The translations under genes were made by a program, and so were the position numbers. Positions 3,152-50,101 of a DNA stretch of 64,000 nucleotides are shown piece after piece. Location of the stretch: positions 1-64,000 of the forward strand of contig CAVXWP010000002.1 of NCBI GenBank assembly GCA_963765495.1, in the 5' to 3' direction. Each line of letters begins with the position of its first letter. Within the stretch, counting starts at the first letter, position 1. The notes below the pieces were generated by a model that was not told the origin of the DNA, made no database searches, and saw only the letters and a program-made list of their open reading frames with translations. Origin of the DNA: Blastocatellia bacterium. Its GTDB lineage: Bacteria; Acidobacteriota; Blastocatellia; UBA7656.

Positions 3152-3577
3152 GGCTCCTTTCGGGATTCATTCATTTCCTTGGGCTTTCCTGACAGGCTTC
3201 TTCCATTTCTTATCTCCTGTTTCATCTCAGTTTCTCCTCTTGCGCGCAATTCATACCTTCTCCGCTGGGGCAGGTTTTCTTGTCGGGGAAACTGCTTGAT
3301 GTGCCAAGTTCCTCCTTTCCAAACAGTCTTCTCTGGCTCTTTGCTCAACAGGTAATTGGCTGCCGGAGTATCTTTGCGAGATAGGTTTATCTTTGAGCAA
3401 GCCTGAAAAGAGAGCATCAGAAGAAAGGAGTTCAGATAAGGGAGAGTTGAGAGAAACAAACAGAGTTGAATCAGGTAAAGAGGAGCGAGAGGCGAGCAAG
3501 TAGCAGTCCTCACTATGTCTCACTCGATCATGTTTTCATATCATTGCTTGGTGAGTCGTATCGGTTGTGAGATTGAC
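3152..3577 (-). other. ORF-less cassette family A (copy 1)
   Basis: Conserved motifs CGACTCA..AAGCA, AGGAC..CTTGCTCGC, TGCTCAA, CCTGTTGAG, TTGGCACATCAAGC, AAAACCTG. Confidence 0.8.
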
Positions 3578-3662
3578 GCCTAACGCGGAGATAACCGGCC
3601 CGCCGTGGGCAAAGGGATAACGAGAGGTTGGCATGCGGGTCCGGTTGATCGACCTGTTAGGC

Positions 3663-3843
3663 CCGCCTTTGTCTTTGGCCGCGCTCGGCGCTTATTTCGA
3701 GCAAATCAGTCTGCCTCGATTGGCGCGGCCCCAACCTTAACTCCTTGCTTGGTGTTTTGACCTTTTCGTCATCATGGTCTTGTTGTCCGAAATACCTTTG
3801 CATCCAATTCGTTGCTGTTGGTCAGGTACTTTCCCGCGAGCCT
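3663..3843 (-). other. ORF-less cassette family C (copy 2)
   Basis: Homology to 50187-50362. Confidence 0.75.
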
Positions 3844-5318
3844 ACTATGAAAATGTCCGGATGTGGCTCACGCAGCAGGTTGAACCTCTTCAACAGTGAC
3901 TTTCAATCCCGTTGCTTCGAGCCGATCAATCAATCGCTTCCTTTGCCTCTCTACATTCTGTTTGTCAAGGTAATCTCCTCCCAACTCTTTATAACTCATC
4001 TGTCGTTCGATCACATGATAAACAATTACCAAAAGTGTGTGGCCGACTGCCACCAATGCCTTCTTCTTCCCCAGCCGCTTCGCTAGCCTTCTATACTGCG
4101 CTGACAGATATGTCTGCTTTGTATGACTCGCTGCCCACGCCGCTTGTACCAGCGCCTCCCGCACATAGGTATTCCCTTTCGTCGTCTTCCCGCTACGCCG
4201 CTTGCCTGCCGATTCGTTATTTCCCGGACACATCCCTGCCCAACTCGAAATATGGCTGTCTGTCGGAAAGCGATCCATATCCACTCCGATCTCTGAGACT
4301 ATTGTTTCTGCCACTCTCTCTCCTATCCCTGGTATTGTTTGTAGCAGTTCTACGGCTTTAGAGACAAAAGGGTCGGCGCTCTCTCCCACCTCCTCGTCAA
4401 TCTGTTGCTCGACTCGTTTGACGGCAACTTCTACTTCTTCATATCGGGTCAGTAACTCGCCCAGCACAAAGCGTTGAGATTTCGTCAGTCGGCCTTCAAG
4501 AGCACGTTTGAGTTGGGGACGCTTGCTTCGCATACGTCGGCGAGCAAACTCACTCAACTTCTCGGCATCGCGCTCACCTGCTGCCAGTGCTCGCAACATC
4601 TGCCTGCCACTGACTCCCAAGACGTCGGTGGCGACTTGTCCGAGCTTGATGTTGGCACTCTCGATCAACTTCTGTATGCGATTGGCAATAGTCGCATTCT
4701 CTTTAACCAACTGCTGACGATAGCGTGTCAACTCTCTCAACTCCCTTATCTCAAGCGGAGGAATGAAGCTGGGCTTTAACAGACCGTGGCGCAGCAAATC
4801 GGCCAACCATTCGCAATCTTTTACATCGGTCTTACGGCCTGGAATACCTTTGTAGTGGCGGGCATTGACAAGCAAGACTTCTACGTTGCCTTCAAGGATG
4901 TTGAAGACAGGCTTCCAGTAAACACCCGTGCTTTCTATTGCAGCAATCGTGCAGCCTTCGGCTATGAGCCAATCCGAAAGACGAAGTAAGTCATCGGTCA
5001 TAGTAGAGAAAGTGCGGACTTCTTTCTTGCCGTGCTTAATGAGGCAAGCGACAACAGTCTTGGCGTGAACATCGAGGCCGCAACAACAAGAATAGATGAT
5101 CTCCATAGCTACCTCTTTCTGGCCAGGGCGTGAGAGCCTTGTTAATGAAGAGTCTACTATGCGTGCTCGAAGCAACAGTTGGTGGTGCCAGAAAGGCTCT
5201 CAGGTCAGGCTGCTATTCGGGCTTGAGGCACCAAGGCTGTACGACCTTATCTGACGCCGCTGACCACAGAGAGTTTAGTCGAACTCGCCCATATTTTCAT
5301 CATTCGTGGCGAAGCCTC
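3844..5318 (-). mobile_element. IS110-family element type 2; left end truncated by ISAs1
   Basis: Right end ATTTTCATAGTAGGC joins a cassette start AGGCTCGCGGG. The ~210-bp upstream non-coding region is homologous to that of the type-1 IS110 but stops about 12 bp short of the end. Confidence 0.85.
3868..5106 (-). CDS. IS110 family transposase/recombinase (DEDD)
   Basis: GLDVHA, IESTGVYW, RKTDVKD, IPGIG and GNNESAGK (catalytic Ser) motifs; 412 aa. Confidence 0.95.
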   Translation of the reverse strand: MEIIYSCCCGLDVHAKTVVACLIKHGKKEVRTFSTMTDDLLRLSDWLIAEGCTIAAIESTGVYWKPVFNILEGNVEVLLVNARHYKGIPGRKTDVKDCEWLADLLRHGLLKPSFIPPLEIRELRELTRYRQQLVKENATIANRIQKLIESANIKLGQVATDVLGVSGRQMLRALAAGERDAEKLSEFARRRMRSKRPQLKRALEGRLTKSQRFVLGELLTRYEEVEVAVKRVEQQIDEEVGESADPFVSKAVELLQTIPGIGERVAETIVSEIGVDMDRFPTDSHISSWAGMCPGNNESAGKRRSGKTTKGNTYVREALVQAAWAASHTKQTYLSAQYRRLAKRLGKKKALVAVGHTLLVIVYHVIERQMSYKELGGDYLDKQNVERQRKRLIDRLEATGLKVTVEEVQPAA

Positions 5319-6623
5319 CAGGGCTGTTGCAAAGTAGGCTCAACGACGCAATATTAGATTTAGGGCCTCTTGCGGATTGGCGTTGTAGCGCCGCCTTGCT
5401 TCCGGCAGATTCTTCAAACCCTGCCTTAATACCATTGCGATTACCAGATTGTTTATCACTGCCAAGCTCTCTGCTGCATGCCCTGTCTTCAACCTACAAT
5501 AGTCCTCTTTCATTGTCTTATCTCTTCGGTAGTGTAACCCATTCTCCACTTGCCAATGCTTTCGCACCACCTGTAGCATCCTTTCAGCATCTGCTTCCTT
5601 CTTTGTCAGGCTTGTTATTCCATAGCTTGTTTCGCTTCGCTTCTTTCCTGTAGACACTATTTCAACTTCTCGCTCTATCTTGTAGACTTGTTCCAAGTAT
5701 GGCCAATCCATCTCTCCTGCCATCATTGAACTTGTTGTTATCTTTCTGTGTTCAATTCGCCCGTGATGTTTCTCTATAGAGCAGGCTGTGGCCAGATCGT
5801 TTTTCATCTCTTTGAGTTTGGTTTTACCCTCTTCTATTTCGAACAATGTTTCAATCTCTGAGCGCAGGTGGGCTTGATTGTCCTTGACTGTCCAGACGTA
5901 ATCGCCGCCAGCTTCGACGACTTGTCGAGAGAGTTCACGTTGTGCAAACATGGCATCACCAGTCACTATTTTCCCCTGTAAATCTATAGATTTAAGCAAG
6001 CGAGGGGCAGCAGATATTTCATTCTCTTTTGATCCTACTTCCATCTGCAAGAGCACAACGCCTTGATCTGGGAGATAGGCTGCAAGCAGATGCAACCCTT
6101 TAGTCTGACCTGCTGGTATAGTCCCTCTAAGAGTCTTTCCATCCATGTTCATTTCTACTGATTGTTCTGCTTTATCAGCAGAAAGCAGAAAGAGACTGAG
6201 AAGTTGTTGAAATTCATTAAGATCAAAAGCCTTGCCAAGTATACGAGAGTAAGTAGTAGGGTGAGGAGTGGAATCTCGATCAAAATCGAGAGCCTCACGA
6301 AGAAACTGCTTTCTCAAAGCAATCCAATGAGCAATGCCACGAGGCTCATCCTCGCCAGCAAGTTTAGCCAGAACGACAAAGACCAAAGCAAGTGCAAGAG
6401 GGTATCGCTTACCTTTAGCTTTGCGATGATCTTTGAGATTCCCTAGATAATGATAGAGACTCCCGACATCGAAGAAAAAGGGAGAATCCCCAGGAACAAT
6501 AGAAGCGGCAAAAGTGTTATACTCCATCAGAGACCTACCTCCGGTTTGTAAAGTGTTTGATTCAAAGAACAACCGGATAAGGTCTTTTCTCTTATCTTGT
6601 CAAGCTACTTTGCAACAGCCCTG
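5319..6623 (-). mobile_element. ISAs1 family element
   Basis: TIR CAGGGCTGTTGCAAAGTAG / CTACTTTGCAACAGCCCTG; no flanking direct repeat. Confidence 0.9.
5340..6527 (-). CDS. ISAs1 family transposase
   Basis: DGKTLRG, KENEI, TGDAMFAQ, VKDNQ, HGRIE and HWQVENGLHYRRD motifs. Confidence 0.95.
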   Translation of the reverse strand: MEYNTFAASIVPGDSPFFFDVGSLYHYLGNLKDHRKAKGKRYPLALALVFVVLAKLAGEDEPRGIAHWIALRKQFLREALDFDRDSTPHPTTYSRILGKAFDLNEFQQLLSLFLLSADKAEQSVEMNMDGKTLRGTIPAGQTKGLHLLAAYLPDQGVVLLQMEVGSKENEISAAPRLLKSIDLQGKIVTGDAMFAQRELSRQVVEAGGDYVWTVKDNQAHLRSEIETLFEIEEGKTKLKEMKNDLATACSIEKHHGRIEHRKITTSSMMAGEMDWPYLEQVYKIEREVEIVSTGKKRSETSYGITSLTKKEADAERMLQVVRKHWQVENGLHYRRDKTMKEDYCRLKTGHAAESLAVINNLVIAMVLRQGLKNLPEARRRYNANPQEALNLILRR

Positions 6624-6768
6624 GTTGGAATATTGGAATTGCTTTGGTTTATCCACACTAGGATTTTGGGTGTCATCGCGTGAGCCTAACGACGAGTTCA
6701 GCGGCGCGCCGGTAGCTGGTGGAACGCGAGTAGTTGGAAAGCGCGTCCGCTGGAATGAGCAGTTAGGC

Positions 6769-7204
6769 GGCTTCCTTCGCCGATTCATCCTTCTTGAGCT
6801 TTCCTGATCATAACCCTCCTATTCTTATCTCTCGTTTCTGCACAGTTTCTCTTCTTCCTCACAGGTCATTTCCTCTCTCGTGCGACAGGTGTTGCTCTCT
6901 TTCGTCGGGGAAGCTTTTTGATCTGCCTACTTCCTCTTTTCCAAACTCGCCTCTCTGATGCTTGTCTCAACAGGCAATCGGCTGAACAGGCTTCTTCGCC
7001 AGACAGGTTTATATGAGCAATGCTGAAAGACTGCTTTGGGAGAAAGAAGTGTCAGATGAAGGAGCAGGGATGAGAGACACAGCAGAGTAGTATGGGATAA
7101 AGAGGCAAGAGAATCGAGCAAGTAGGGGTCCTGGCGATGACTTGCCTGGACAGGTTTCAACAGCAAGGCAAACTGAGTCGTCTCCCTTTCGTCGGTGATC
7201 TGAC
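6769..7204 (-). other. ORF-less cassette family A (copy 2)
   Basis: Family A motifs between two attC. Confidence 0.8.
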
Positions 7205-7644: not shown

Positions 7645-7955
7645 TTCTGAAATTTGTCCATCCAAGAAAGGAACACAAAATGAGCAACGCAAAAGTACCT
7701 CCCCAGAAACAGGGTAGCAGAATTGAGCCTATGGGCAAGGGAAAGGATGAAATAGAAAAGCAAAATCATAAGGCATAAAAGTTTAGGCGATCTAAGGAGA
7801 GGTGATGATGGCTAAAAAGGACCTTTATATCGCTTTATCCACACCATGATTTTGGTTGGTAGCCAGAGGGGCCTAACGCCGAGTTCAGCGGCGCGCCGGT
7901 AGCAGAGGGAAAATGAGTCGTTGGAAAGCGCGTCCGCTGGAATGAGCAGTTAGGC

Positions 7956-8388
7956 GGCTTCCTTCGCCCCTCCATCCTCCTTCCTCTTGGCCGATCATTA
8001 CCTCCCATTTCTCTTCTCCTCTTTCGCCTCTGTTTCTCCTCCTCCCTACTGTTATCCTCTCTTGCGTAATAGGGTTTCTTGCTTGTTGTCGCGGAAGGTT
8101 CCTGATCTCCCAGCTTGCCTTTCCCACACTCTCTTCTCTGCTGGTTGGCTCACCAAACCATTCAACTGCGAAGCTATCTTTGCCAGACAGGTCTATCTTT
8201 GAGCAAAGTTGAATAGTTGCTATTGGAAAAGGAAATATCCAATAAAGGAGCAGAAATGATCGAATAAGCAGAGGTGCATCTGGTAAAGAGCAATGAGAAG
8301 CGAGCAAGTGGATGTCCTGGCGATGTCTTACCTAATATTGTTTTCGCCTCATTGCTTGGTAAGTCGTTTCGCTTCTGAGAGATTGACG
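7956..8388 (-). other. ORF-less cassette family A (copy 3)
   Basis: Family A motifs; its R' core is split by the intron. Confidence 0.8.
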
Positions 8389-9207
8389 GTCGGGTAAGGA
8401 GGCGATGTTATCATCGCCCCCTCCCCTCAGAACGGTACGGGCATCTTTCGACGCATACCGCTCAAGCATCTCAAAGGCTTCTTGCGAAACCCGGTCGTGC
8501 TTCTCAACACCACCTTCACGATACTCATTTGCTGCCGATTTGCCTTTCAGCCGGAAGCTGCACCAGCCAGTGTTGCCACTGCCGTCATCTGCGTTGCTTC
8601 CTGTATCGGTTCGTCAAACTCTCTCGTGACGAGACACCAGATGGAAGTCTGCACGCTTTCGCGTGAGGTGATCTTGCCATTGGCTCAACCTCTATCCAGT
8701 TCATTACAAACTGGCTTTCGCTTCCTCCATCTTCCTTTACCCGCCACTCCATCAATCGACCTTGCGGCTGATCTACCCCGCAGGGAGAGCGACGGGCTTA
8801 CCACGTTCCGCGTGCGTGCCAGAGTGGGTTAGGTCGTGCCTCTTGGCCGGTGGTTCGACATCTGCGACGGGCGAGTTAGGAGCGCCCGTGCCTGACCACT
8901 TGCCTTTTGGCCCAAGCGTCAAAGCATCTTCCGCTTGTTCCGGTTAACGACCTTTATCAGCACTTCACCTGGGTTGACCATACCACTCAATCCTAGTCCC
9001 CGACCCCTTTGATGCTAGGAGTCGCAACCGCTTCTCACGATTAAGTTGCCACTTCACAAAGGAAGTGAGGATACATTGTCCCGCAGGCTTCGCACCTCGC
9101 CGTTTGAAGCGACGCACGCTACGGTAGGATACTGATGGCAGAACATCAGGTTATATCCGGTTTCAAACAACCGTCATAACAGCCATTCACGCGACTTCGT
9201 GTCGCAC
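8389..9207 (-). ncRNA. ORF-less group II intron (IIB/CL1-like), copy 1, 819 nt
   Basis: 5' GTGCG; 34-nt domain V GAGCGGTATGCGTCGAAAGATGCCCGTACCGTTC; domain VI ending ...CCGAC; inserted at attC GTTAGG|C. Confidence 0.93.
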
Positions 9208-9868: not shown

Positions 9869-10061
9869 GCATTCCACCTTGAAGGTTCGGTAAAGATACC
9901 ACTGTCGAAATGCCAAGCCGCGCCAACAGATAGCTTCGACTCAACCGGAATTTATCGGGTAGCGCGGCGCAGTGATTGTGTCAGTACACTTTGTAGACAT
10001 GTAGTCTGATTGCTTGGTTGACGATCAGTGTAGCTCATTATCACGGATCGCTTCCCTGTGC
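9869..10061 (-). other. ORF-less cassette family B, short variant (identical to 25420-25612)
   Basis: Starts GTTAAGCGC; shares TGTCTACAA, GCCGCGC and GCGCGGCTT blocks with other family B copies. Confidence 0.7.
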
Positions 10062-10147
10062 GCTTAACGCCGGGCATCAGCGGCCCGCCGTGGTTGAAGG
10101 GATAATGAAATGGTGGTATGCGGGTCCGGTTGATTGAGCAGTTAGGC

Positions 10148-10502
10148 GGTCCCTTGCCTGTTTCATTACTTGAGCTTTGCTGGCCCTGATCCTCCAATTC
10201 TCAGCCTCACTTTCTGAGATAGGTTTTCCTGCTATTGCTTAGGAAGCAGCTTGATGTGCCAAGTTCGTCTTTTCCAATCAGGTTTGTGCTGCCGCTTACC
10301 TCAACAGGCAATTGCCATGTGAAGGTATCTTTTCGAGGTGGGTTTATCATTGAGCAATGCTGAACAATCGTTTGGAAGAAATATCATATGAAGGAGCAAG
10401 AGAAGAGAGAAGCGAGCAAGAGGCTCTCCTCGCTATGACTCGCCTGAACTGGTTTTCGTAGCGTTGCTTGATGAGTCGTTTCCCTCTCATCGACGTTCTG
10501 CC
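10148..10502 (-). other. ORF-less cassette family A (copy 4)
   Basis: Family A motifs. Confidence 0.8.
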
Positions 10503-10587
10503 GCCTAACGACGAGATAACCGGCCCGCTGTGGTTGAAGGGATAATGAAACGGTGGTATGCGGGTCCGGTTGATTGAGCAGTTAGGC

Positions 10588-10963
10588 AGCCCCTTGCCTG
10601 TTTCATTTCTTGCGCTTTGCTGGCCCTGATCCTCCTGTTTTCGTCTCACTTTCTGAGACAGGTTTTCCTACCATTGTCGGGGAAGCATCTGAATTGGCAG
10701 GTTTATCCTTCCAATCAGGTTTGACCTGCCACATTCCTTAACTGGCAATTGCCCTGCGAAGGTATCTTTTCGAGGCAGCATTGTCATTGAGCAATGCTGA
10801 ACAGACTGATTCGGGAGAAAGCAGTATCAGAGAAAGGAACAGAGATAAGCGATGCGAAGAGAGTGGAATGAGAAGCGAGCAAGCGCATTGTTCTGGCGAT
10901 GACTACCTGAACATATTATCGCATCATCGCTTGCTGAGTCGTCTCGCTTCTGAGAGACAGACG
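10588..10963 (-). other. ORF-less cassette family A (copy 5)
   Basis: Family A motifs; nearly identical to 49724-50101. Confidence 0.8.
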
Positions 10964-11782
10964 GTCGGGTAAGGAGGCGATGTTATCATCGCCCCCTCCC
11001 CTCAGAACGGTACGGGCATCTTTCGACGCATACCGCTCAAGCATCTCAAAGGCTTCTTGCGAAACCCGGTCGTGCTTCTCAACACCACCTTCACGATACT
11101 CATTTGCTGCCGATTTGCCTTTCAGCCGGAAGCTGCACCAGCCAGTGTTGCCACTGCCGTCATCTGCGTTGCTTCCTGTATCGGTTCGTCAAACTCTCTC
11201 GTGACGAGACACCAGATGGAAGTCTGCACGCTTTCGCGTGAGGTGATCTTGCCATTGGCTCAACCTCTATCCAGTTCATTACAAACTGGCTTTCGCTTCC
11301 TCCATCTTCCTTTACCCGCCACTCCATCAATCGACCTTGCGGCTGATCTACCCCGCAGGGAGAGCGACGGGCTTACCACGTTCCGCGTGCGTGCCAGAGT
11401 GGGTTAGGTCGTGCCTCTTGGCCGGTGGTTCGACATCTGCGACGGGCGAGTTAGGAGCGCCCGTGCCTGACCACTTGCCTTTTGGCCCAAGCGTCAAAGC
11501 ATCTTCCGCTTGTTCCGGTTAACGACCTTTATCAGCACTTCACCTGGGTTGACCATACCACTCAATCCTAGTCCCCGACCCCTTTGATGCTAGGAGTCGC
11601 AACCGCTTCTCACGATTAAGTTGCCACTTCACAAAGGAAGTGAGGATACATTGTCCCGCAGGCTTCGCACCTCGCCGTTTGAAGCGACGCACGCTACGGT
11701 AGGATACTGATGGCAGAACATCAGGTTATATCCGGTTTCAAACAACCGTCATAACAGCCATTCACGCGACTTCGTGTCGCAC
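10964..11782 (-). ncRNA. ORF-less group II intron, copy 2
   Basis: Same 819-nt sequence and same GTTAGG|C insertion point. Confidence 0.93.
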
Positions 11783-11929: not shown

Positions 11930-12070
11930 TTCTGGTCATTGGCTGATAGGTCGTCGGGCCTTGGTGCCTTTAGCCCGGTCGTTAGTTTGACTTGGGGAGC
12001 CTTTTCAGGCATCACAACTTGTTGCTTCGAGCACGCATAGCAGTCTCTTTTGTTTTGAGGCTCCCCGCCA
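11930..12070 (+). ncRNA. Putative bridge RNA of IS110 type 1
   Basis: Non-coding region conserved with the type-2 element. Two stem-closed domains carry GTCGTTAG (attC match) and CATAGCAG (element-end match). Boundaries approximate. Confidence 0.6.
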
Positions 12071-12090
12071 ATGCCGAAAGGAGTTCTATC

Positions 12091-13329
12091 ATGCAGATTC
12101 TTTACAACTCTTGCTGTGGTATTGATGTTCACGCTCGCACCGTTGTCGCCTGCCTCATCACTGACGGCAACAAAGAGGTTCGCACTTTCTCAACCATGAC
12201 TGATGATTTGCTTGCCCTGCTCGACTGGCTCACTTCTCAAGGCTGCACTCACGTCGCTATTGAAAGTACTGGCGTTTACTGGAAGCCTGTTTTCAATATC
12301 CTCGAATCCTCCCTGGAGGTTATTTTGGTTAATGCCCGCCACGTCAAAGCTGTTCCTGGCAGAAAGACTGATGTTAAGGATTGTGAGTGGCTTGCTGACC
12401 TGCTTCGTCACGGTCTGCTTCGTCCCAGCTTTATCCCTCCTCCTCATATCCGTGAACTCAGGGATTTGACTCGCTACCGCCAGAGCCTTATCCGTGAGCA
12501 GACTGCTCTTGCCAATCGCATTCAGAAGTTGATTGAAAGCGCCAATATCAAGCTCGCTCAAGTCGCTAGTGATGCTTTGGGGGTTAGCGGCAGGCTGATG
12601 CTGAGAGCTTTGGCTGATGGTCAAACCGATGCTGACAAGATCAGCGACCTTGCTCGTCGGAGGATGAAGCGTAAGAAGGCTGACTTGAAGCGTGCTTTGC
12701 ACGGTCGCCTCACTTCTGCCCAACGCTGGATTCTTAAAGAACTCCTCGATCAGTATGACTCGGTTGAATCCTCTATTAAGAGGGTTGAAGAGAAGATCAG
12801 CCAGGAGGTCGAAACTTCCCCAGACCCTTTTGTTAAGCAAGCTGTTGAGCTTCTCGATTCTATTCCAGGAGTCGCAAAGACCTTAGCCCAGATCATTGTC
12901 TCTGAGATTGGAGTAGATATGAGCTGCTTCCCAACAGACAAGAATCTCTCAAGTTGGGCTTCGATCTGTCCCAGTAATAATCAATCGGCAGGAAAACGAA
13001 AGAGTGGAAGAACCCAAAAGGGCAATAGCTATCTAAAAGCAGCCCTTGTGCAGGCAGCCTGGGCAGCAACGCATCAGAAGGATTGTTTCCTTGCAGCGAA
13101 GTACAAAAGGCTGGTCAAGAGAATGGGGAAGAAGAAGGCGCTGGTAGCAATAGCACATTCGATACTTGTGATTGTATATCACGTCTTAGAAGAGAGAGCC
13201 GGTTACAAAGAGTTGGGAGTAGATTATCTGGACAAAAGGAATGTAGAGAAGCAGCGGCGAAGATTAATCCGACAGCTTGAGGGGACGGGCTTGAGAGTAA
13301 CTGTTGAAGAGGTCGAGCAAGCTGCCTGA
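12091..13329 (+). CDS. IS110 family transposase/recombinase
   Basis: GIDVHA, IESTGVYW, RKTDVKD and SNNQSAGK motifs; AGGAG RBS before ATG 12091. Confidence 0.95.
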   Translation: MQILYNSCCGIDVHARTVVACLITDGNKEVRTFSTMTDDLLALLDWLTSQGCTHVAIESTGVYWKPVFNILESSLEVILVNARHVKAVPGRKTDVKDCEWLADLLRHGLLRPSFIPPPHIRELRDLTRYRQSLIREQTALANRIQKLIESANIKLAQVASDALGVSGRLMLRALADGQTDADKISDLARRRMKRKKADLKRALHGRLTSAQRWILKELLDQYDSVESSIKRVEEKISQEVETSPDPFVKQAVELLDSIPGVAKTLAQIIVSEIGVDMSCFPTDKNLSSWASICPSNNQSAGKRKSGRTQKGNSYLKAALVQAAWAATHQKDCFLAAKYKRLVKRMGKKKALVAIAHSILVIVYHVLEERAGYKELGVDYLDKRNVEKQRRRLIRQLEGTGLRVTVEEVEQAA

Positions 13330-13359
13330 TCAACACCTACTCTTATTTTCATAGCAGGC

Positions 13360-13747: not shown

Positions 13748-14740
13748 TTAAGCGGAAATTGACTCCACTGGACCAATTTCACATCCACATTCCACTGCTC
13801 CCATTTTTATGGTTTGAGTGTAGTTTCTACCCACGACATCCTGAAATTCTATCCTTAAAGGAAAAATGCGCCCATTTGCATGTTCCTGCTTAAGATGAAA
13901 CAGAAAATTCAGCCCAAACCCGTGTCCAGTCGGCTCATCCCCAAATCGGGATATGTGCTTGATGATCGTTGGTTCTCCAGGTCGAAGGTATGTCAATCTC
14001 TCGAATGCTATATTCGCATCAAGTGTAGAATCGAGTTGGAGGCTAACTGTCTCTATTCTAATGTTGATAGCTGAAATATTTCCAATGTTGATAATCTCAA
14101 GCTGTTCGCCTAATTGGATTAAGCGAGTAGCAAATGCAGGTAAAGAATAAATTTGCGAGATTTTCTGAGCCTTTTGCCTAGATTTGGCGCTATTTGTCCT
14201 CTTGGCTCGGGTTCCAGCCTTCTCTTTCGTCTTTCTACTAACTGAATCAGGTGTATCCAAAATGCTTGAGGAACCCACCACTTCCTTAATGAGTTCACTG
14301 ATCTGGACGAGGACTTGGTCTTGGTCAGCTTTTTTCATACGGGCTAAGGGTTTCTCAGGATTAAGTATAGCAGCTTGGTATTTTTGAATAGCAGTTTCTT
14401 TGTAAAGACTAGGTCGAATGGGTATCCACATTATCGTTAAGCCATTTTTTTGAGCGGCATTCAGCAATGGTGGGAGCTCAACATTTGCAATAAAATCAGA
14501 TGCAAGAAACTCTGGACTTACAAGGAGGACTGCAACGCGGGCACGAGTTATGGCTTCTTCGATTTCCTTTTTCCATTCTGTGCCAACCTGAATCTTAGTA
14601 TCATCCCACAATGAAACCTTGTTATCTCTAACAAGCGGTTTTAGGATGATTTGGAGCTTTTCCAACCATTTTTGATCCTTGTGACTATAGCTAATGAATA
14701 TCTGGTTGCGGATGTTTCGTGTGCGTGGCCTCTTCACCAT
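13748..14740 (-). CDS. TIR domain protein (cassette)
   Basis: IFISYSHKD...LWDDTKIQVG...VSPEFLASDFIANVELP, with the catalytic Glu position present. Confidence 0.9.
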   Translation of the reverse strand: MVKRPRTRNIRNQIFISYSHKDQKWLEKLQIILKPLVRDNKVSLWDDTKIQVGTEWKKEIEEAITRARVAVLLVSPEFLASDFIANVELPPLLNAAQKNGLTIMWIPIRPSLYKETAIQKYQAAILNPEKPLARMKKADQDQVLVQISELIKEVVGSSSILDTPDSVSRKTKEKAGTRAKRTNSAKSRQKAQKISQIYSLPAFATRLIQLGEQLEIINIGNISAINIRIETVSLQLDSTLDANIAFERLTYLRPGEPTIIKHISRFGDEPTGHGFGLNFLFHLKQEHANGRIFPLRIEFQDVVGRNYTQTIKMGAVECGCEIGPVESISA

Positions 14741-14926
14741 TGCAGGCTTTATTATATGCAAAAAGACAACATGCACAACCCAATGGTTGCCTAACTCAGA
14801 TTTAGACTCCGTAAAGTTGTTTGATACAACGAACATTAGTGATCTCGCATGAATGGAAATGCCACTAGCGAAATTGAAAGCCATCTCCTTTTTTCCAAAT
14901 CGAGAAGCATCGGGTCACCGAGAGAG

Positions 14927-15745
14927 GTCGGGTAAGGAGGCGATGTTATCATCGCCCCCTCCCCTCAGAACGGTACGGGCATCTTTCGACGCATACCGCT
15001 CAAGCATCTCAAAGGCTTCTTGCGAAACCCGGTCGTGCTTCTCAACACCACCTTCACGATACTCATTTGCTGCCGATTTGCCTTTCAGCCGGAAGCTGCA
15101 CCAGCCAGTGTTGCCACTGCCGTCATCTGCGTTGCTTCCTGTATCGGTTCGTCAAACTCTCTCGTGACGAGACACCAGATGGAAGTCTGCACGCTTTCGC
15201 GTGAGGTGATCTTGCCATTGGCTCAACCTCTATCCAGTTCATTACAAACTGGCTTTCGCTTCCTCCATCTTCCTTTACCCGCCACTCCATCAATCGACCT
15301 TGCGGCTGATCTACCCCGCAGGGAGAGCGACGGGCTTACCACGTTCCGCGTGCGTGCCAGAGTGGGTTAGGTCGTGCCTCTTGGCCGGTGGTTCGACATC
15401 TGCGACGGGCGAGTTAGGAGCGCCCGTGCCTGACCACTTGCCTTTTGGCCCAAGCGTCAAAGCATCTTCCGCTTGTTCCGGTTAACGACCTTTATCAGCA
15501 CTTCACCTGGGTTGACCATACCACTCAATCCTAGTCCCCGACCCCTTTGATGCTAGGAGTCGCAACCGCTTCTCACGATTAAGTTGCCACTTCACAAAGG
15601 AAGTGAGGATACATTGTCCCGCAGGCTTCGCACCTCGCCGTTTGAAGCGACGCACGCTACGGTAGGATACTGATGGCAGAACATCAGGTTATATCCGGTT
15701 TCAAACAACCGTCATAACAGCCATTCACGCGACTTCGTGTCGCAC
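14927..15745 (-). ncRNA. ORF-less group II intron, copy 3
   Basis: Same 819-nt sequence and same GTTAGG|C insertion point. Confidence 0.93.
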
Positions 15746-19252: not shown

Positions 19253-19428
19253 GCGCCTTTGTCGTTGGCCGCGCTCGGCTTTCTGGGCAATTCAATCAAG
19301 GCATATCGGGAGGCGCGGCCCCAATCTTGACTCGCTGCTTTGTGACTGCGTCGTTTAGTTACTATGACATTGTTCACTCTTTTTTCCGCCTCTGTGTCGT
19401 TGCTGTTGGTCAGGAAATTTCCCCGCGA
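19253..19428 (-). other. ORF-less cassette family C (copy 3)
   Basis: Identical (inverted) to 50187-50362. Confidence 0.75.
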
Positions 19429-22847: not shown

Positions 22848-23177
22848 GGCTCTTTTCTCTCACTCATTTCCTCTCCCTCTTGGCTCAATTTCTTTTTCCC
22901 TTCTGCCTCATCTTTCCCATTAGCTTCTTTCTCGTTGCTTTCGTGCTATTTGATTCGCCCCGTCATTTCTCCCAAAGTTGTCTGTTTGGGCCAAGGCTGT
23001 GCAGGTACTCTCGCTTGAAGAGGCTCTCAGGATGGCAGGGCTTTTGTGCGACCAGCAGAAATCGAGGGTAAATCGAGCAATGAAAAGCGAGCAGATTGAT
23101 TGTCCTCGCGATGAGTTTGCTATCAGGTCATTGAATGATTACCTGTTGAGTCGCTTCCATTTCAACGGTGTTCTGAC
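22848..23177 (-). other. ORF-less cassette family A (copy 6, divergent)
   Basis: GCGACTCAACAGG...ATCGCGAGGACAA..CTGCTCGCTTT, followed by a purine-rich tail. Confidence 0.7.
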
Positions 23178-23262: not shown

Positions 23263-23602
23263 GGCTCCCCTTGCTGATTTATCTCTTCGCCTTCGCTCGT
23301 TTTCATCTTCCAATCCTCTTCCTCCCTTCTCTTTGCAGTTTCTTCCTGACTGCTTAAAAGCTGTTTGCCTGGTCGAAAGCTTCCTTCCCAAGCAGGTCTG
23401 CTTTGGCCAAGGCTTATCAGGCAAACTGGCTTGAAGAGGCTCTTTGGCAAATAACCCAGAGACAGAGCATAGCTGAAAGCACTGCATTGTAGAAGTGTGA
23501 GTCTGATGAAGGCGAGAAGATTGATCGTTCTCGGCAGCGACTCCAAAGCAGGTCTTTTTGGCATTGCTTGACGAATCGTTTCCTCTCTATCGATGTCCTG
23601 AC
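23263..23602 (-). other. ORF-less cassette family A (copy 7, divergent)
   Basis: GGAAACGATTCGTCAAGCA...CTCGCCTTC, followed by a purine-rich tail. Confidence 0.7.
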
Positions 23603-24320: not shown

Positions 24321-24675
24321 GGCCCCTTGAGTGCTTCATTTTCTTGAGCCTTGCTGACCCTGATCCTCCTATTTTCAGTCTCACTTTCTGAGACAGCTTT
24401 TCCTGTCATTGCCAAGGAAGCAGCTTGATGTGCAAGCTTTGTCCTTCCCAATCAGGCTTCTCTACCCCTTGCCTCAACAGGCAATTGCCCTGCGAAAGTA
24501 TCTTTTCGAGGCAGCATTATCATTGAGCCAGAGTGAATAATCCTTTGGAAGAAACATCCTATGAAGGAACAAGAGAAGAGAGAAGCGAGCAGGTGGCTGT
24601 CCTGGCGATGACTTCCCTGAGCATGTTTTCGTAGCGTTGCTTGATGAGTCGTCTCCCTCTCATCGACGTTCTGAC
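24321..24675 (-). other. ORF-less cassette family A (copy 8)
   Basis: Family A motifs. Confidence 0.8.
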
Positions 24676-27890: not shown

Positions 27891-28281
27891 GGCTTCCTTC
27901 GCCTCTTCTTCCTCTCTCCCTCTTCTGTCATCTTCTTACTGACCTCTTCTCTTTTTGTCTGCTCTCCTCTTCTTGCTCCGATTCTTGTCGGGTCTTCTCT
28001 CCTAGCTTTGCTGGCAAGAATCTCTCGATCAGATCGGTTTCTGTTCGGATGCAGATTCTTGCCCGCCATTGAGTCGTCAGCCTCCTCCATTCTGTTTTCG
28101 TTGATTGTCTCAAGGAGATTGTCGAGATCGTGTAATGAGGAGAGCGAGATGTCTGGAAAACAAAGAGAGTAGGAGAGGGGAACGTGAATGCAAAGGCGAG
28201 CAAGTAGCAGTCCTCGCGGTGTCTCACCTGATCAAGTTTACACATCACAGCTTGATGAGTCGTGTCGCCTTTGAGATTGAC
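27891..28281 (-). other. ORF-less cassette family A (copy 9)
   Basis: Family A 5' domain, then a pyrimidine tract, then a purine tract. Confidence 0.75.
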
Positions 28282-30679: not shown

Positions 30680-30716
30680 TTTCAAGAACTGTAAACACTT
30701 GAGAGGAGAAAGCACG

Positions 30717-32619: not shown

Positions 32620-33260
32620 AGAAAAATTCAATTAGCTTTCAGTATTTTGTATTAATAAGGATATGCAGGTTCTGTATTGCGGTCAAATATTATGGAAGTT
32701 CTCTCGATTACAGGAGTATTTATTGGACTGCTGGCAGGTATTTTGTGCAGGAAGACCTATGCTGCTTAATCTTCTAATGCACCTTGCTGGTAATGAACAA
32801 TTAGGTACAATGCCAGTCAGACCAAATTGATCTAGCAAGCGAGCAGTTGCGGCGATGGGTCTGTTGTCTCGACAGGTGACTTGCCGCGATGTTCTGCCTT
32901 TCAATTCATGATCAGACCTTGAACTTCCTCGCCCCGTCAGAAGGCCTAACCTTGGCATTCAGCGGACCCGCATTCCAACATCGCATTATCCCTTTGCTGC
33001 TGGCGGGCCGCTGATGCCTGCGTTAGGCTCGCTCAGGACTAACCACGTCAGCGGTATGGATAATTCTAAGGAAATCTGATTCTTCCGTTAAAGCCTGACA
33101 ACGGACGATGCTCTGATTTATCTACCTTAGATTAGCTCTTGATCTTCCGTACATCTATTGAGCAATTAGACTATTTCCTGCAATACTACTCTCTATAATC
33201 GAATGCGCATGCAGATCATCAGTAAATTGGCTAATTTGGAGATTACCAAAGGAGAAGTCA

Positions 33261-33884
33261 ATGAACTTAGACCCAATAACGACTGCCTTAACTAAGGGTG
33301 GAGTAGAAGAAGGCGTAAAGGCCGCAAAACCTCTTTTGGAGAAGCTTTGCGGGCCAGCGTTGGAGGAACTCGGTTTGCTCCTACAGGATCGAGCACGTGT
33401 ATATCGCTTGAAGAATCAATTGCGTATTTTGAGCAAGGTACAAATTATGCTGCGAGAAGCAGGGACCACTGTGCAAGCAGTCCCACTACGTACTTTACTG
33501 CCTCTTCTTGAAGGTGCAGCTCTCGAAGATAGTAAAATGTTGTCTGACATGTGGGCCGGCCTACTTGCCAGCGCGGCTAGTTTCGGAGAGTCTGAATCCA
33601 TTCATCCAAGTTTTCCCAGAATTCTTAGCGAGCTAACACCACGTGAGGCCCATATATTGGATAAAGTCTATCAAGATGAGTTTGAGAAGATTTGGGAGCC
33701 ATTTCGCGAGGAGCTTGCAAACGAATTCGAAATCTCTCTTGATGAAGTAAATCAAGCACAAGGTAATTTATTCCGTTTAGGACTGTGCCATCTCTCAAGC
33801 AGTCCAAAGGGTACACTCCTCAAACTGAGCGCATTCGGTCGACAATTTCTCAAATCCGCATATGGTCCGATACAAAAGAGGTAA
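33261..33884 (+). CDS. Abi-alpha (DUF4393)-like protein
   Basis: LEDSKMLSDMWAGLLASA...HPSFPRILSELTPREAHIL...LSAFGRQF. Confidence 0.8.
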   Translation: MNLDPITTALTKGGVEEGVKAAKPLLEKLCGPALEELGLLLQDRARVYRLKNQLRILSKVQIMLREAGTTVQAVPLRTLLPLLEGAALEDSKMLSDMWAGLLASAASFGESESIHPSFPRILSELTPREAHILDKVYQDEFEKIWEPFREELANEFEISLDEVNQAQGNLFRLGLCHLSSSPKGTLLKLSAFGRQFLKSAYGPIQKR

Positions 33885-34018: not shown

Positions 34019-34410
34019 GTCAATCTCAAAAGCGACACTACTCAACAAGCAGTGATGCGTAAACTTCATCAGGTCAGATATCGTGAGGACAGCTACTTGC
34101 TCGCTTCTTATCCCTCTTTACCCGATACTGCTTTCTCCCGATCCAGACATTTCAGCACTGCTCAAAGATTAACCTGCATCTCAATGATTCCTTCGCAGTT
34201 GAATTGCCTGTTGAGGAATGTGGCAGAACAAACCTGATTGGCAATGACGAACTGGCACATCAATAGGCTTCCTCGACGATAGCCAGGAAAACCTGCCACA
34301 GAAAAGAAGGTAGCAACATGGAGAAATAGGAAAACTGTGCCGAAACAGGAGATGAGAAATGGAGGAATATGGTAAGCAAACAGGAAGAAGATGAAGCGGC
34401 GAAGGAATCC
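34019..34410 (+). other. ORF-less cassette family A (copy 10)
   Basis: Family A motifs in plus orientation. Confidence 0.8.
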
Positions 34411-34710
34411 GCCTAACTGCTCATTCCAGCGGACGCGCATTCCAACGATTCATTATCCCGAGGCTACTGGCGCGCCGCTGAACTCGTCGTTAGGCTCACT
34501 CGGTCACCCGGAAAGACTTGGATTATTGAATCTGATAGTCCTTTCTTTTCCTTTGTGCTTGCAATACCTCAAAAGCCCTCGCCATTGATTACTCAGGCAA
34601 ATTTGTCTGCCTAACTCAATCTCACATCTTCCTAAAGGTCTTCCTATTCTCATTCTTCGTTTGAATTCTTATTGCGTTTTCCATTAACCTCATTCAAGGA
34701 GACTTCTTTT

Positions 34711-34953: not shown

Positions 34954-35308
34954 AACTGGACTCAGCCTAACTGCTCATTCCAGCGGACGCGCGTGCCAAC
35001 CGCTCGCGTTCCACCAGCTACCGGCGCGCCGCTGAACTCGTCGTTAGGCTCGCGTGCGCACAGCAAGCAATCGCCTATATTCGCTCGCAATCTTCTCTGA
35101 TCTGTATTACACTGACCACCGATGTCAGGAAAGCGGGCTGATTCGGCCTACAGGCCGACAATGCCAAGATGTTTGTTTATGCAATAACCTGATGGTTTAT
35201 GGAAGAACAAACTTGTTTGTCCATAGAGAAACTTGTTTATGAATGAAAAAACTTGGCTTGTGGGTCTATTTCATGGTTGGGCCGCCTTCAATCTCTAACT
35301 AGGTACTT

Positions 35309-39209: not shown

Positions 39210-40852
39210 CAGCGATTCCCGGTGAGGAGATAGGTATCTGACTCAATAAGTCGCTCAACTTACAAAAGACAAACCCTTCTCATCGCTCCAAGTCTCTGGA
39301 CGCCTGTTTTCACTTCCTTTCCTTTCTGTTTGTTTCTTCTTTCTCCTCCTCTTCCTCTCTGTTGGATGGTTCTCTTTTGGCCGCTCCCTTGCCCCGGCCT
39401 GGGCTTCCTCTTTATCCACTATCTTCTTCCAACTCTGGATCATACTCTGCAAGCAACTGTGCCCAACTCTCTACCAAGAATCTGTGAAAACAGTATTTCA
39501 ATTCCTGCCACATCTCTCTCAATGTCCATTTCTCTCTCAGCTTACGGTAGGTTCTATCGCTTCTCTCCAACACTTTGTGCACCACGAAGGCCAGCAGATT
39601 CAGATAGTAGAAGACCTCACTCAAGCTCTTGCTTCCGTGTCCGAAGTTATGCTCCAACTCATAGCCTCCGTTTTTGTGTATGTTGAAATGCTCGTTTTCT
39701 ATCTTCCATCTCCCTCTTCCTATCCAGATTATTTCCGAAACATTCTCTGAGGTAACTTCAAGATTTGTCACCCAGGTCGAGTGATAGATTTGCCTGCCTT
39801 CTTTGTTTGTTTCCCACACTTCTATAAAGGTCACCCAATTCTTACGAGCCTGACTCATCGGCATCTCCCGTACAATTCTCCATCTGAAATACCTTCGCTT
39901 GGCTTTGGGTCCTTCCTGCCAATTACCTCGCTCGACCCACTCTCCTACAGCTTCTGCTTCTTCTACCCACTCGAAGGTCTCTTTGTGCGAGGTGGGTTTA
40001 ACTGATAGCAAAAAAGGCAGTTGCAACTCATTGAGTTGCTCGATCAAGGGTTCTGATGAAAAGATCGCATCGCCAAGGATCAACATATCGAGTTTGGGAT
40101 GCTCTCGACGCAGGCGTGCAAGCAATCGCTTTGCTGCATTGATCTCACAGTCCTGTTTGGCTTGGCCGTCAGTGTTTCTTATAGGCTCGGCATCTATTGG
40201 CAAGATAGAGTGCGTTCGGCTCTTGAAGAGAGTCGCCGCCAAGATAGAATGACGGTAGCAGACAGAGCCGTCATCCGTTGTGCGACGAAGACAGCCCGGA
40301 CAGTTGATAGCTGTTGAAGAGAAGTAATCCGTGCCATCTATAGCCACCGGGTAGAATCGTTTACCCAAAGCCAAAGACGTGCGCCAGTCCCAGACCCAGC
40401 CCGAACGGCGGTAACGCTGAAAGATCAAGGCAAGCAAGCGACGAAGAGGCTCTGTGTCAGCGCCATCGAGAATCTCGCGCAATTGAGTATCAGAGGGAAC
40501 CGCTTTAACGCCGAAGATAGTTTCGAGATTGCAGCGCCCCTTTCTTTGTTTGAGCCGATGCTGAAAATGAAGCAAGGAAGGATGATGAAAAAAGAAGATA
40601 GCAAAGGCCGAAAGTATAGAGTCGCGCAGAGAGTAGTTGATGCGCTGAGGATTACGGCGATCAGCGAGACGTTCAAAAGTGCGCGAAAGCAAAGCGACGA
40701 CAGATTCAAAAGAGAGATGAATAGGAGTACGCATAGGCAAATCTTGCCGCTAACTCGTCGGCAAGCCAAGTCAGAATGAAGGAAAAGTTCGCAATTTGAT
40801 CTTTTACAAAGTGGCAGGGTTGTTGTACTTCTCCTCAAACCGGGAATTGCTG
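39210..40852 (-). mobile_element. ISNCY-like DDE element
   Basis: TIR CAGCGATTCCCGGT / ACCGGGAATTGCTG; 9-bp DR CCGGAATGA. Confidence 0.88.
39412..40740 (-). CDS. DDE transposase (ISNCY-like)
   Basis: AIDGT, KQDCEINAAKR, LGDAIF and GRGRWKIENEHFN motifs. Confidence 0.9.
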   Translation of the reverse strand: MPMRTPIHLSFESVVALLSRTFERLADRRNPQRINYSLRDSILSAFAIFFFHHPSLLHFQHRLKQRKGRCNLETIFGVKAVPSDTQLREILDGADTEPLRRLLALIFQRYRRSGWVWDWRTSLALGKRFYPVAIDGTDYFSSTAINCPGCLRRTTDDGSVCYRHSILAATLFKSRTHSILPIDAEPIRNTDGQAKQDCEINAAKRLLARLRREHPKLDMLILGDAIFSSEPLIEQLNELQLPFLLSVKPTSHKETFEWVEEAEAVGEWVERGNWQEGPKAKRRYFRWRIVREMPMSQARKNWVTFIEVWETNKEGRQIYHSTWVTNLEVTSENVSEIIWIGRGRWKIENEHFNIHKNGGYELEHNFGHGSKSLSEVFYYLNLLAFVVHKVLERSDRTYRKLREKWTLREMWQELKYCFHRFLVESWAQLLAEYDPELEEDSG

Positions 40853-41867
40853 CCGGAATGATGGTCTACAGATAGGAGTAGAATGACTGGTATACAATGG
40901 GAAAAACTGACTCCGCGCCAATTTGAGGAGTTCGTTCACAGGCTTGTTGAGGCTATGAACTTTGAAGCGGTCACTTATTGGGGAGGTCCAGGTGATCGAG
41001 GCAGGGATATCGTTGCTTACCAGCCACCAAGTATCCCTGGTATTCGCCCAGCAAGCCGAAAATGGATTTTTCAATGCAAACGTTGTAAGCGATTAACCCA
41101 ATCCGAAATCAATAATGAGCTATCCAATTTCATCTCAGATGATATTGATACTTGGATACTTGTCACTACAGTCAGTCCTTCGCCTGGCTTAAGAAGATGG
41201 TTTGAAAAATTGGACAAATCAGTTAATTATCATTTTCATGTGGAAGCGTGGTGGAGAGAGGAAATAGAAGGTTATGCTCGGAAGTATGGGCGAGCACTCT
41301 TAAACAGCCTCCCCTCAGATGTATTGACTCTTCTGGATCTTCCCAAAGAGCTAGATTTGCTGACCCAGGTGGGGTTGATACCCTTACAGCAAGATGCCGT
41401 GACATAACGAACTCTCAAGTAGAGCGATTCGCTAAGGGGAAGTATATTCCGAAGCTTTATATTCGCAGACAACTCCAGGAAAGACTGACTCTATTTCATA
41501 GTTCGGAGGCTGAGCTAGCTAAATTGCTCAAGTCAAATAGTATACACTCAATAAAGGAGGAGATATTACAAATTGAAGATTATTTGAAATCCTTTCCATT
41601 GAAAGGTGTAGAAAAAGAAAGAGGGCACGAGCATCCGGTTATTCAAGAAGCAAGACCGCCTGATTTTAGGAGTGAAGTTGATTTTCTAAACAGTTTATTT
41701 AGTCGATCAAAAAACTGGATTAATAAACTGGTCCAGTCTGTTAATCTCCTACTTGAAACTGCGCAGGCTCTTTCGGAGTCTGTTTATTTCGATAAACAAG
41801 GCGACCATTTAAGATTATGCGAACGTATAAATGCTGTTGTATCCGTTTTGAAGTCCATGCCTAAGAC

Positions 41868-43351
41868 CAATACCTGTCAAATAAGCAAAATAGCATCACA
41901 AAATCGTAGCTGTGGCTTGGGCCAGTTGTAATGCTGTGGTCGCTTCAGATTGAACCCACTCATCTTTCTCTTCACTACTCGCGGATTCGATCTGGCTCGC
42001 CTTTCTGGTAACCTTTGCTCTCCTATATCTCTCAATAGCCTCTTGTATAATTGCTCCTTTTGCTCCTTTTCTACCATTTGGAATTCTGGTATTGCTTCTT
42101 GGATTATCCTCAATGCTCCTACAAAACTTATCCGATCCGGGTCTACTTCTGCCTCATTTGCTGCTTCGTGTATCAGTTTTCTTACTGCATAATGCGCTAT
42201 CAATAATGCGTATAACTCTTGTATGACTCCCTCTGGTTTTAGGCTTCTCAATGGCCTTCCTGCTAGTCGTTGATGTGTATCTATCTCATCTATGACTATC
42301 TCGATTTCCCATCGCTCGTGATACAAACACACCAACTCTTTGGCCGGATACTTCCTTTCATCCAATAGTGTTGTGACTATGCGGTATCTCTTCTGGTATC
42401 CTGCTTGGGTCGGGTCTGTAAAAGTGTAAGAGATTATCCGAACCAACTGTTTGTCTTCTTTATTTCGCCGTCCTTTTTGTGTTGGTCTGATATAGCCTAA
42501 CCACGTTCCATCTTCTAGCGTGCAAAGGTGTTCCGGTTTCACATTGTCAGGCAATCTACCAAGACATTGAGACCCTCGCTCAAGTGTCGCAACTACCATA
42601 TCATAGGAGTGAAAGCCTCTATCCCACATCAAAAGCATCCCTTTTCCCAGGCTTCTTAGCAGGCGAAAACCTCCAACTCGTTCACTGCTTTTTGCAGGCC
42701 AAAATCCTGCATCAATAATGGCATGAGTGCCACATTCTACAAGGTAGACAGCCTGAATTTGCACGAAGCAACACTTCCCGCGATCAGAAGCCAACCGCCC
42801 AAAAGCAGCATCATTTTCCGGAGTGTCCGGGGCTTCTTCAATAGAGCCGTCAAGGGCCATTAATCGCAGTCCAAATGCAAAAGCGCCACGAGTTTCATCT
42901 GTTGCCATAGGTTGTGCAACACGATGAAACAATGAGACTAAAGGACGAGGCCCCAACTGGTAACGACGATAAGATATTGCATTGTGTTTAGGAGGAGGAA
43001 AGTCAGGATCAGGCCAGATGAAACGCAAACCCTGAAAGACTCTCCGCACGACATGTCCAATAGAGAAATGTGAAAACAGATTCATAGCGATGATAATGAG
43101 CACGACAGCGCTCATAGTGAGTTTGCGATGTCGTTTGTGAGAGGCATTGTGGAGATCAAGAACCTCTTGGATTAATTCAATAGAGACGGCATCAGAGATG
43201 GCATCAATAGAGAGATGATCACAGAACTTTCGTTCATCGGTAATATGGCGTATTTTGTAACTCAAGCGAGGCGGCTCCTTGACAACTTTCGTTTCTATCA
43301 ACTCGAAAGTATGCCATAAATGCCGTCTCGTGGCTTATTTGACAGGTATTG
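41868..43351 (-). mobile_element. IS4 family element, second copy of 25699-27182 (CDS 41877..43301)
   Basis: Same TIR and protein; 10-bp DR TGCCTAAGAC. Confidence 0.93.
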
Positions 43352-48810: not shown

Positions 48811-48934
48811 TTTCAGAAGCAGAAGCGGAGCAGACAATAGCAATCCGCCGCCTAACAGGTCGATCAACCGGACGCGCATGCCAACGTCTCATTAGCCCTC
48901 GGCTACCGGCGCGCCGGTTATCTCGTCGTTAAGC

Positions 48935-49198
48935 GCGCAGGAAATTGGTCGGTGAGAATTAACCAAACTGGTCGCCAAGATCGCAGCCAATATTATCTGT
49001 CTACAAGCTGTGCTGTTAGACTCACACTGGTCGTCAGATTGCAGGGTAGAATGACCTGTCTACGTCTGTCGAGTTAGACTCACACTTCGCCGCGCTAGTC
49101 GAAAGGGTAGAGTCAAAGTCCCGCTAAAAGGTAAAGTAAGCTTGCGCGGCTTGAACGACAGGAATCTTCATCTGTGACGAACTTACAAATCAGAACGC
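48935..49198 (+). other. ORF-less cassette family B
   Basis: Internal direct repeat GTTAGACTCACACT x2; homologous to 1836-2096. Confidence 0.78.
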
Positions 49199-49284
49199 GC
49201 CTAACCGTGGCATTCAGCGGACCCGCGTGCCACCGCCTCATTATCCCTTTGCCCACAGCGGGCCGCTGATCCCCGGCGTTAGGC

Positions 49285-49638
49285 GTTAGATCACCGATGA
49301 AAGGGAAACGACTCAACAAGCAACGCTACGAAAACCAGTTCAGGCGAGTCATAGCGAGGAGAGCCTCTTGCTCGCTTCTCTCTTCTCTTGTTCCTTCATA
49401 GGATGTTTCTTCCAAAGGATTATTCACTCTGGCTCAATGATAATGCTGCCTCGAAAAGATACCTTCGCAGCACAACCACCTGTTGAGGCAAGGGGTAGAG
49501 AAGCCTGAATGGGAAGGACAAAGCTTGCACATCAAGCTGCTTCCTTGGCAATGACAGGAAAAGCTGTCTCAGAAAGTGAGAGTGAAAATAGGAGGATCAG
49601 GGTCAGCCAAGCGCAAGAAATGAAACAGGCAAGGGACC
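49285..49638 (+). other. ORF-less cassette family A (copy 11)
   Basis: Family A motifs. Confidence 0.8.
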
Positions 49639-49723
49639 GCCTAACCGCTCAATCAACCGGACCCGCGTGCCAGCGATTCATTATCCCTCCGACCACAGCG
49701 GGCCGGTTATCTCGGTGTTAGGC

Positions 49724-50101
49724 GTCCATATCTCAATGGAAGCGAAACGACTCATAAAGCGATGATGCGAAAACATGTTCAGGTAGTCATCGCCAGGACA
49801 ATGCCCTTGCTCGCTTCTCATTCCACTCTCTTCGCATCGCTTATCTCTGTTCCTTTCTCTGATACTGCTTTCTCCCGAATCAGTCTGTTCAGCATTGCTC
49901 AATGACAATGCTGCCTCGAAAAGATACCTTCGCAGGGCAATTGCCAGTTAAGGAATGTGGCAGGTCAAACCTGATTGGAAGGATAAACCTGCCAATTCAG
50001 ATGCTTCCCCGACAATGGTAGGAAAACCTGTCTCAGAAAGTGAGACGAAAACAGGAGGATCAGGGCCAGCAAAGCGCAAGAAATGAAACAGGCAAGGGGC
50101 T
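49724..50101 (+). other. ORF-less cassette family A (copy 12)
   Basis: Family A motifs. Confidence 0.8.

Follow-up and report, generated by a model that had tools for sequence, protein, structure and literature searches.

The 64,000-nucleotide stretch analyzed here (the window; Blastocatellia bacterium, GenBank assembly GCA_963765495.1, contig CAVXWP010000002.1, positions 1 to 64,000) carries integron arrays in which one recurrent type of cassette, which we call family A, holds no conserved reading frame. On balance, judging from the nucleotide sequence, we favor the reading that family A consists of gene-less integron cassettes and is likely a near-neutral passenger, probably amplified by the copy-and-paste excision of the integrase and turned mosaic through homologous recombination between copies. 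As for its C/T and A/G tracts, the probable source is a base bias found in much of the repeated DNA of this bacterium. Linking a gene-less cassette family to the repeat polarity of its genome is a new contribution.

An attC profile built from the window locates 49 attC sites, in a minus-strand array at 424-28366 and in plus-strand arrays at 32944-55795. Family A is represented by 12 cassette bodies of 330-436 bp, nine on the minus strand and three on the plus strand, in array orientation throughout, and each unit terminates at the GCCTAAC of its own attC. Pairwise identity among the 12 units has a median of 0.62 (range 0.45-0.95). An earlier sequence-only reading had described integron cassettes that lack genes, are paralogous to one another and amount to about a quarter of the array; its 12 starts and the uniform orientation hold, and family A occupies 12 of the 46 attC-attC intervals of the window (26%). 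For the copies at 7956 and 10588, the bodies begin where that reading placed them, but an intact GTTAGGCG is missing upstream, where a group II intron of ~820 nt without an open reading frame (ORF) splits GTTAGG from C. The 12 bodies, followed by the domains of one example copy, are listed below.

3152..3577, minus strand: family A body, 426 bp; own attC 3066-3151.
6769..7204, minus strand: family A body, 436 bp, of a type with seven near-identical copies in the genome; own attC 6684-6768.
7956..8387, minus strand: family A body, 432 bp, with a group II intron ahead of it; own attC 7871-7955.
10148..10502, minus strand: family A body, 355 bp; own attC 10063-10147.
10588..10962, minus strand: family A body, 375 bp, with an identical copy of that intron ahead of it; own attC 10503-10587.
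22848..23177, minus strand: family A body, 330 bp, divergent clade; own attC 22763-22847.
23263..23602, minus strand: family A body, 340 bp, divergent clade; own attC 23178-23262.
24321..24675, minus strand: family A body, 355 bp; own attC 24235-24320.
27891..28281, minus strand: family A body, 391 bp, with a 5' domain 93% like another type and the rest 44-60% identical to the nearest copy; own attC 27806-27890.
34019..34410, plus strand: family A body, 392 bp; own attC 34411-34495.
49285..49638, plus strand: family A body, 354 bp, mosaic type; own attC 49639-49723.
49724..50101, plus strand: family A body, 378 bp; own attC 50102-50186.
49724..49814, plus strand: example 5' domain (~90 nt), the slowest-evolving block, swapped as a module.
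49815..49887, plus strand: pyrimidine tract of the example copy, a block whose length varies within the family; family mean A.16, C.33, G.10, T.41.
50022..50101, plus strand: example purine-rich 3' end (family mean A.42, C.14, G.33, T.11), which has a weak hairpin-plus-T run in antisense where it meets the attC.

In the host genome, which spans 7.3 Mb in 17 contigs, three intI genes score above cut-off, none of them within the 64-kb window, and there are 221 attC-attC intervals of at most 4 kb. Two independent profiles find 50 family A copies genome-wide, which fall into 28 types at 95%, and 50 of 50 lie in integron arrays. Two other gene-less families, B (54 intervals) and C (16), bring the gene-less share to 119 of the 221 intervals, and all three attI sites are directly followed by a gene-less cassette, of family A at one site and of family B at two. 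Family A shows the features by which integron cassettes are recognized, namely attC bounds with a GTTRRRY core and a RYYYAAC inverse core, array orientation, a host integrase and signs of movement as a unit with its own attC.

Comparison of near-identical copies indicates how the cassettes travel. Across 38 such pairs, the identity of the downstream attC has a median of 0.98 (20 pairs at 97% or more), compared with 0.76 for the upstream attC (no pair at 97% or more). Repeated neighbor pairs, as multi-cassette blocks would leave, are not above chance (3 versus 1.6, p 0.22), and the cassette classes succeed one another at random in the arrays (a gene comes next after A in 20 cases, with 20.0 expected). 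Because the downstream attC is shared and the upstream attC is not, with no excess of shared blocks and random order, each copy travels alone, as a true cassette does. Integrons are established to duplicate cassettes by copy-and-paste through semi-conservative attC excision (PMC8024014), and family A copies probably multiplied in this way.

The copies are also mosaic. Their nearest neighbors shift from block to block, several pairs differ solely in the first 85-100 nt, and the copy at C3:319113 resembles the 49724 type up to approximately position 210 and the 10148 type beyond it. Full chimeras with both parents in the genome account for 3 of the 43 unique family A sequences, and near-identical copies also differ in patches within attC. 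The genome contains recA, and RecA-type homologous recombination between copies and attC sites would give rise to such mosaics.

In 38 of 38 unique family A sequences, the second half is richer in purine, and this polarity extends to repeated protein-coding DNA. Measured at four-fold sites of mechanically called ORFs of at least 250 codons, the shift averages 0.198 for 44 multi-copy ORF types (20 above 0.15 and none below -0.15) and 0.012 ± 0.074 for 3485 single-copy ORFs. It is positive in 43 of 55 non-array repeats, a partly redundant set, and in 47 of 60 cassette genes. The three intI genes of this genome shift by 0.32-0.40, compared with a mean of 0.025 for 80 foreign intI genes, none of which exceeds 0.25. 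For tuf (20 of 23 loci used, three partial loci having been dropped), the shift is 0.44 in this genome, 0.23-0.52 in six of seven family relatives and -0.17 to 0.11 in nine genomes outside the family. Transposases inside the arrays (IS110, IS4 and other DDE types, at 3868-5175, 5340-6572, 11992-13329, 21302-22639, 25749-27173, 39412-40740 and 41877-43301) all carry a strong gradient from 5' pyrimidine to 3' purine. In the 20 most polar repeats, four-fold sites average A.12, C.37, G.17, T.35 in the first third and A.35, C.13, G.44, T.07 in the last, and the tract compositions of family A match these sites in both C/G and T/A.

These data suggest that the C/T and A/G tracts may stem from a polarity of repeated DNA in this lineage and not from cassette function, a polarity presumably caused by biased conversion between copies. 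We propose tentatively, and with less than even confidence, that family A could be a near-neutral non-coding recorder of a hitherto undescribed, lineage-specific, strand-biased recombination that would drive the 5' part of each strand to pyrimidines and the 3' part to purines. Repeated genes such as tufA and tufB undergo concerted evolution by gene conversion. The likeness to that system is that exchange among dispersed copies both homogenizes them and makes them mosaic, and the difference is that each strand of the repeats here grades from pyrimidines in its 5' part to purines in its 3' part. Literature searches on this gradient, and on noncoding paralogous cassettes, returned no paper that combined all the terms. 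Tract lengths show an apparent 13-nt step with autocorrelation peaks, among copies that are not independent. Separately, a purine-only stretch of 443 bp at C9:32828-33270, in an array region, matches itself and is possibly an assembly artefact.

The sequence-only reading had proposed, among other selected non-coding functions, a structured RNA, with a 5' domain that can pair through short helices. RNAalifold finds no consensus pairs in the 5' domain of the 28 types and essentially none in 26 full-length types (two divergent types left out), and in a tree-based covariation test the best E values are ~7 for the 5' domain and ~6 for the full length. As a positive control, 28 attC sites of similar divergence give structure conservation indices of 0.61/0.75 and covarying pairs at E 0-0.15. 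Mean folding z scores are -0.3/-0.5 for the 5' 100 nt of the 28 types and -0.24/-0.42 for the full length of 14 of them, so that neither strand departs much from zero. No specific pairing is seen for the C/T and A/G tracts (z -0.2). An Rfam search matches nothing in family A beyond a chance snoRNA at E 0.2, with the introns matched elsewhere in the window, so the proposed covariance-model and Rfam check yields neither significant covariation nor an RNA family. Single copies can fold, and the proposed helices (12 pairs) form in 75% of cells compared with 39-48% when slid along the alignment, as is to be expected of helices taken from the consensus. Against shuffled sequences, they pair in 75.1% of cells compared with 74.2%, and 77 of 500 shuffles reach the observed value. 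With the attC control passing the same tests, we regard a structured non-coding RNA as very improbable. The Xanthomonas sRNA-Xcc1 is likewise a non-coding sequence on an integron cassette; according to PMC12444791, it travels with symE and is common to 13 species, whereas family A carries no gene, shows no fold and gave no homologue in the searches run. Hammerhead and CsrA-site ideas were dropped on inspection of the motifs.

Protein coding fares no better. Block lengths in family A change by steps of every phase, the copies have their stops at different places, no frame is conserved and conservation shows no 3-nt periodicity (p 0.36-0.52). The earlier statement that indels break every reading frame thus holds for the family as a whole but not for every copy, since long stop-free frames occur, confined to single copies; the copy at 23263 is stop-free over 118 codons. 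Four cassette-spanning ORFs, the only ones searched, have no Pfam match. A decayed or antisense protein-coding cassette could be argued from the one long open antisense frame in the majority sequence, conceivably a relic, and from 2 of 18 frame tests at p ~0.01, uncorrected and both antisense, yet the varying block lengths, the differing stops, the missing periodicity and the lack of a Pfam match for those four ORFs make it the least credible of the explanations considered. Judged by the criteria of Boucher 2006 for non-coding cassettes, family A has no protein match (Pfam, four ORFs), no codon-type variation and many whole-length paralogues (50 copies, 28 types), and several single copies have non-conserved open frames longer than the 150 bp allowed.

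The motifs shared by the copies are present as a consensus but not as exact strings, as had been described; depending on the motif, 1 to 11 of the 12 copies carry it exactly. GCGAAACGACTCA is exact in 1 of 12 copies and found in 10 at no more than two mismatches, CTTGCTCGCTTC is exact in 6 and found in 10 with mismatches allowed, TTCAGCATTGCTCA is exact in 4 and found in 9 at no more than three mismatches, AAACCTG is exact in 6, and TTGGCACATCAAGC is exact in 2 and found in 5 at no more than three mismatches. The 5' domain has five invariant columns where 3.3 are expected from random divergence, compared with 31 and 4.3 in the attC control, which leaves the description of these paralogues as motif-constrained on weak ground. 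Rate heterogeneity is mild, as gamma alpha ranges from 2.4 to 7.1 across blocks (2.4 in the 5' domain). If family A is a near-neutral passenger, its motifs would mostly be inherited homology and its 5' domain at most weakly constrained.

Several observations weigh against near-neutrality or against a common origin of the tracts. Gene-less cassettes in 119 of 221 intervals are a large load for purely neutral DNA. All family A sequences come from one genome, which limits the power of the covariation test for each pair. The 5' domain evolves ~30% more slowly than the rest (tree length 4.0 versus 5.5-5.9), and gamma-distributed rates beat uniform rates there (twice the log-likelihood difference, 31.7), as they do in the middle block (32.1). 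Of the 25 types whose anchors are exact, 24 have GACTC and TGCTCGC 58-60 nt apart, and the 59-nt spacing is kept through offsetting -1/+1 indels, which may be just one or two events. The 5' domain is 56% purine where the polarity would predict pyrimidines. Clear polarity is lacking both in family B (19 of 29) and in family C (2 of 7), and changes in the pyrimidine tract, polarized on the tree (5 from purine to pyrimidine and 13 from pyrimidine to purine), reveal no ongoing push to pyrimidines.

The slow 5' domain and its kept spacing leave room for weak selection or for extra conversion beside attC. One form of such selection would be a protein-binding or recombination-anchor DNA module, for example one that helps copies or strains to exchange segments of their arrays. 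In favor, no block evolves more slowly than the 5' domain, its spacing is fixed and swap breakpoints cluster just behind it; yet its invariance is near Poisson, no multi-cassette blocks are shared and adjacency to attC alone would raise conversion there. We consider such a module improbable.

Regulatory roles were weighed on similar grounds. Family A might act as promoter cassettes driving downstream genes, as in Vibrionaceae, where most of 29 Vibrio gene-less cassettes have sense promoter activity according to PMC11014356 (Blanco 2024). Those cassettes resemble family A in being attC-bounded, in lacking a conserved ORF and in residing in a large sedentary integron, and an A cassette stands first behind one attI. 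However, sigma70-like sites (at least 9 of 12 positions) occur in 2 of 28 types where 4.4 are expected and extended -10 sites number 1 against 5.2 expected, in scans that assume E. coli-type promoters, and A is not enriched upstream of genes. Any promoter activity of family A is putative, and we think this role quite unlikely. A sigma54-like TGGCAC..TGC in the middle block, compared by eye with the consensus, has a spacing one base off, is not conserved and was rejected.

An insulator appears somewhat less remote, though still unlikely. C-rich, G-poor untranslated 5' tracts on each strand would load Rho and damp transcriptional read-through both ways. This role retains some probability because windows with C in excess of G occur on both strands (median best excess 0.27 per 60 nt, near the genome 95th percentile of 0.28) and rho is present in the genome; weak antisense hairpin-plus-T sites at two attC junctions also fit, and in class 1 arrays, as PMC11511950 reports, the translation of a cassette influences how much mRNA is present downstream of it. 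Yet the skew is equally strong in T/A and C/G, with the same composition at four-fold sites of repeated genes including tuf. Tracts of this kind also mark insertion sequence (IS) and intI genes, the cassettes have no positional preference in arrays, and terminator-like sites number 4, compared with 2.2 ± 1.7 in shuffles. Two rho-like genes are found, at C8:30238-31476 and C7:95836-96945, the second below the family cut-off.

Searches beyond this genome returned no homologue of family A. When two copies were compared with 60 relatives by BLAST, a single match of 31 nt appeared, which is not at an attC, was judged chance and lies upstream of what we take, from its translation, to be a dnaA-like ORF. 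A sequence-only family A model matched none of 52 genomes from the same family and none of 150 from the phylum, none of them of the same genus and with arrays often missing from metagenome-assembled genomes. A metagenome pattern combining the attC end with two motifs, which fits just 14 of the 28 types, had no match, and an attC-end pattern hit seven loci, none of them family A. No match was found in 80 intI loci (978 kb), and five matches to a viral pattern search were all judged chance. The homologue search tools may omit very close genomes. Among sequencing runs, family A was found in one DNA run, maybe the source sample and so not independent, with no RNA run listed. The guide or decoy library once suggested for these cassettes is unsupported, as blastn against phages and plasmids gave no family A match.

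The arrays of the window also contain introns and the two other gene-less families.

8389..9207, minus strand: ORF-less group II intron at GTTAGG^C of the upstream attC (Rfam RF00029 and RF02012; junctions).
10964..11782, minus strand: second identical copy of the ORF-less group II intron (Rfam; junctions).
14927-15745, minus strand: third identical copy of the ORF-less group II intron.
1836-2097, 9869-10062, 25420-25613 and 48934-49198: family B gene-less cassettes.
19253-19428 and 50187-50362: family C gene-less cassettes.

The three identical introns lie in array (top-strand) orientation at GTTAGG^C, each behind one rare attC type; attC-targeting group IIC introns are known to insert on the bottom strand. 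A preference for family A was considered and rejected: two of the three introns precede A, yet all three follow the one rare attC type, and the intron target looks attC-determined for this reason. Reverse transcriptase-like genes occur at C2:555-559 kb and on C8 and C9, with a 70%-identical intron at C2:554.6 kb, so mobilization in trans is possible. Families B and C share a conserved CCGCGC...GCGCGG stem around a variable ~35-nt loop, reminiscent of attC arms, with no significant covariation in either family, and family B has 12 extended -10-like sites on the top strand where 4.8 are expected. Array orientation flips across 28366-32944, which holds an IS66 element and a DDE transposase and suggests an IS-linked inversion. 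At 35050-35300 on the plus strand, the start of a cassette interval resembles, by eye, the repeat-rich region upstream of the C3 integron attI, and it is possibly a captured or relic attI inside the array. Defense-like or toxin-antitoxin-like genes lie at 13748-14884, 33261-33884, 2209-3017, 27217-27770, 40883-41407 and 54459-55640; the domains among them are TIR, Abi_alpha, HEPN, DUF433/DUF5615 and two Mrr_cat proteins.

The closest parallels to family A are the non-coding cassette families of Vibrio. According to PMC1382264 (Boucher et al. 2006), these are gene-less, lineage-restricted and highly paralogous, with a 45-copy family in V. vulnificus CMCP6 and up to 49% non-coding cassettes in an array; selfish, regulatory and gene-conversion explanations were raised for them there. 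Relative to that account, family A sits in an unrelated host, its copies are far more diverged (median 62%, versus over 80% in Vibrio), and it is demonstrably mosaic and polar from pyrimidine to purine, with no cross-species homologue in the searches run. By analogy, family A is a new member of the known paralogous non-coding cassette families, even though single copies break the 150-bp ORF cut-off.

Why large integrons carry families of gene-less cassettes has long been puzzling, and selfish, promoter and RNA explanations compete. Family A, set against a matched positive control, shows that shared motifs and striking tracts need not imply a structured RNA. If family A does record a strand-biased process, that process would shape tracts, cassette genes and intI alike in an integron where gene-less cassettes are in the majority, and Rho-loading sites on both strands could arise as a by-product of the polarity. 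Fifty diverged non-coding copies are good material in which to measure this polarity bias free of protein constraint.

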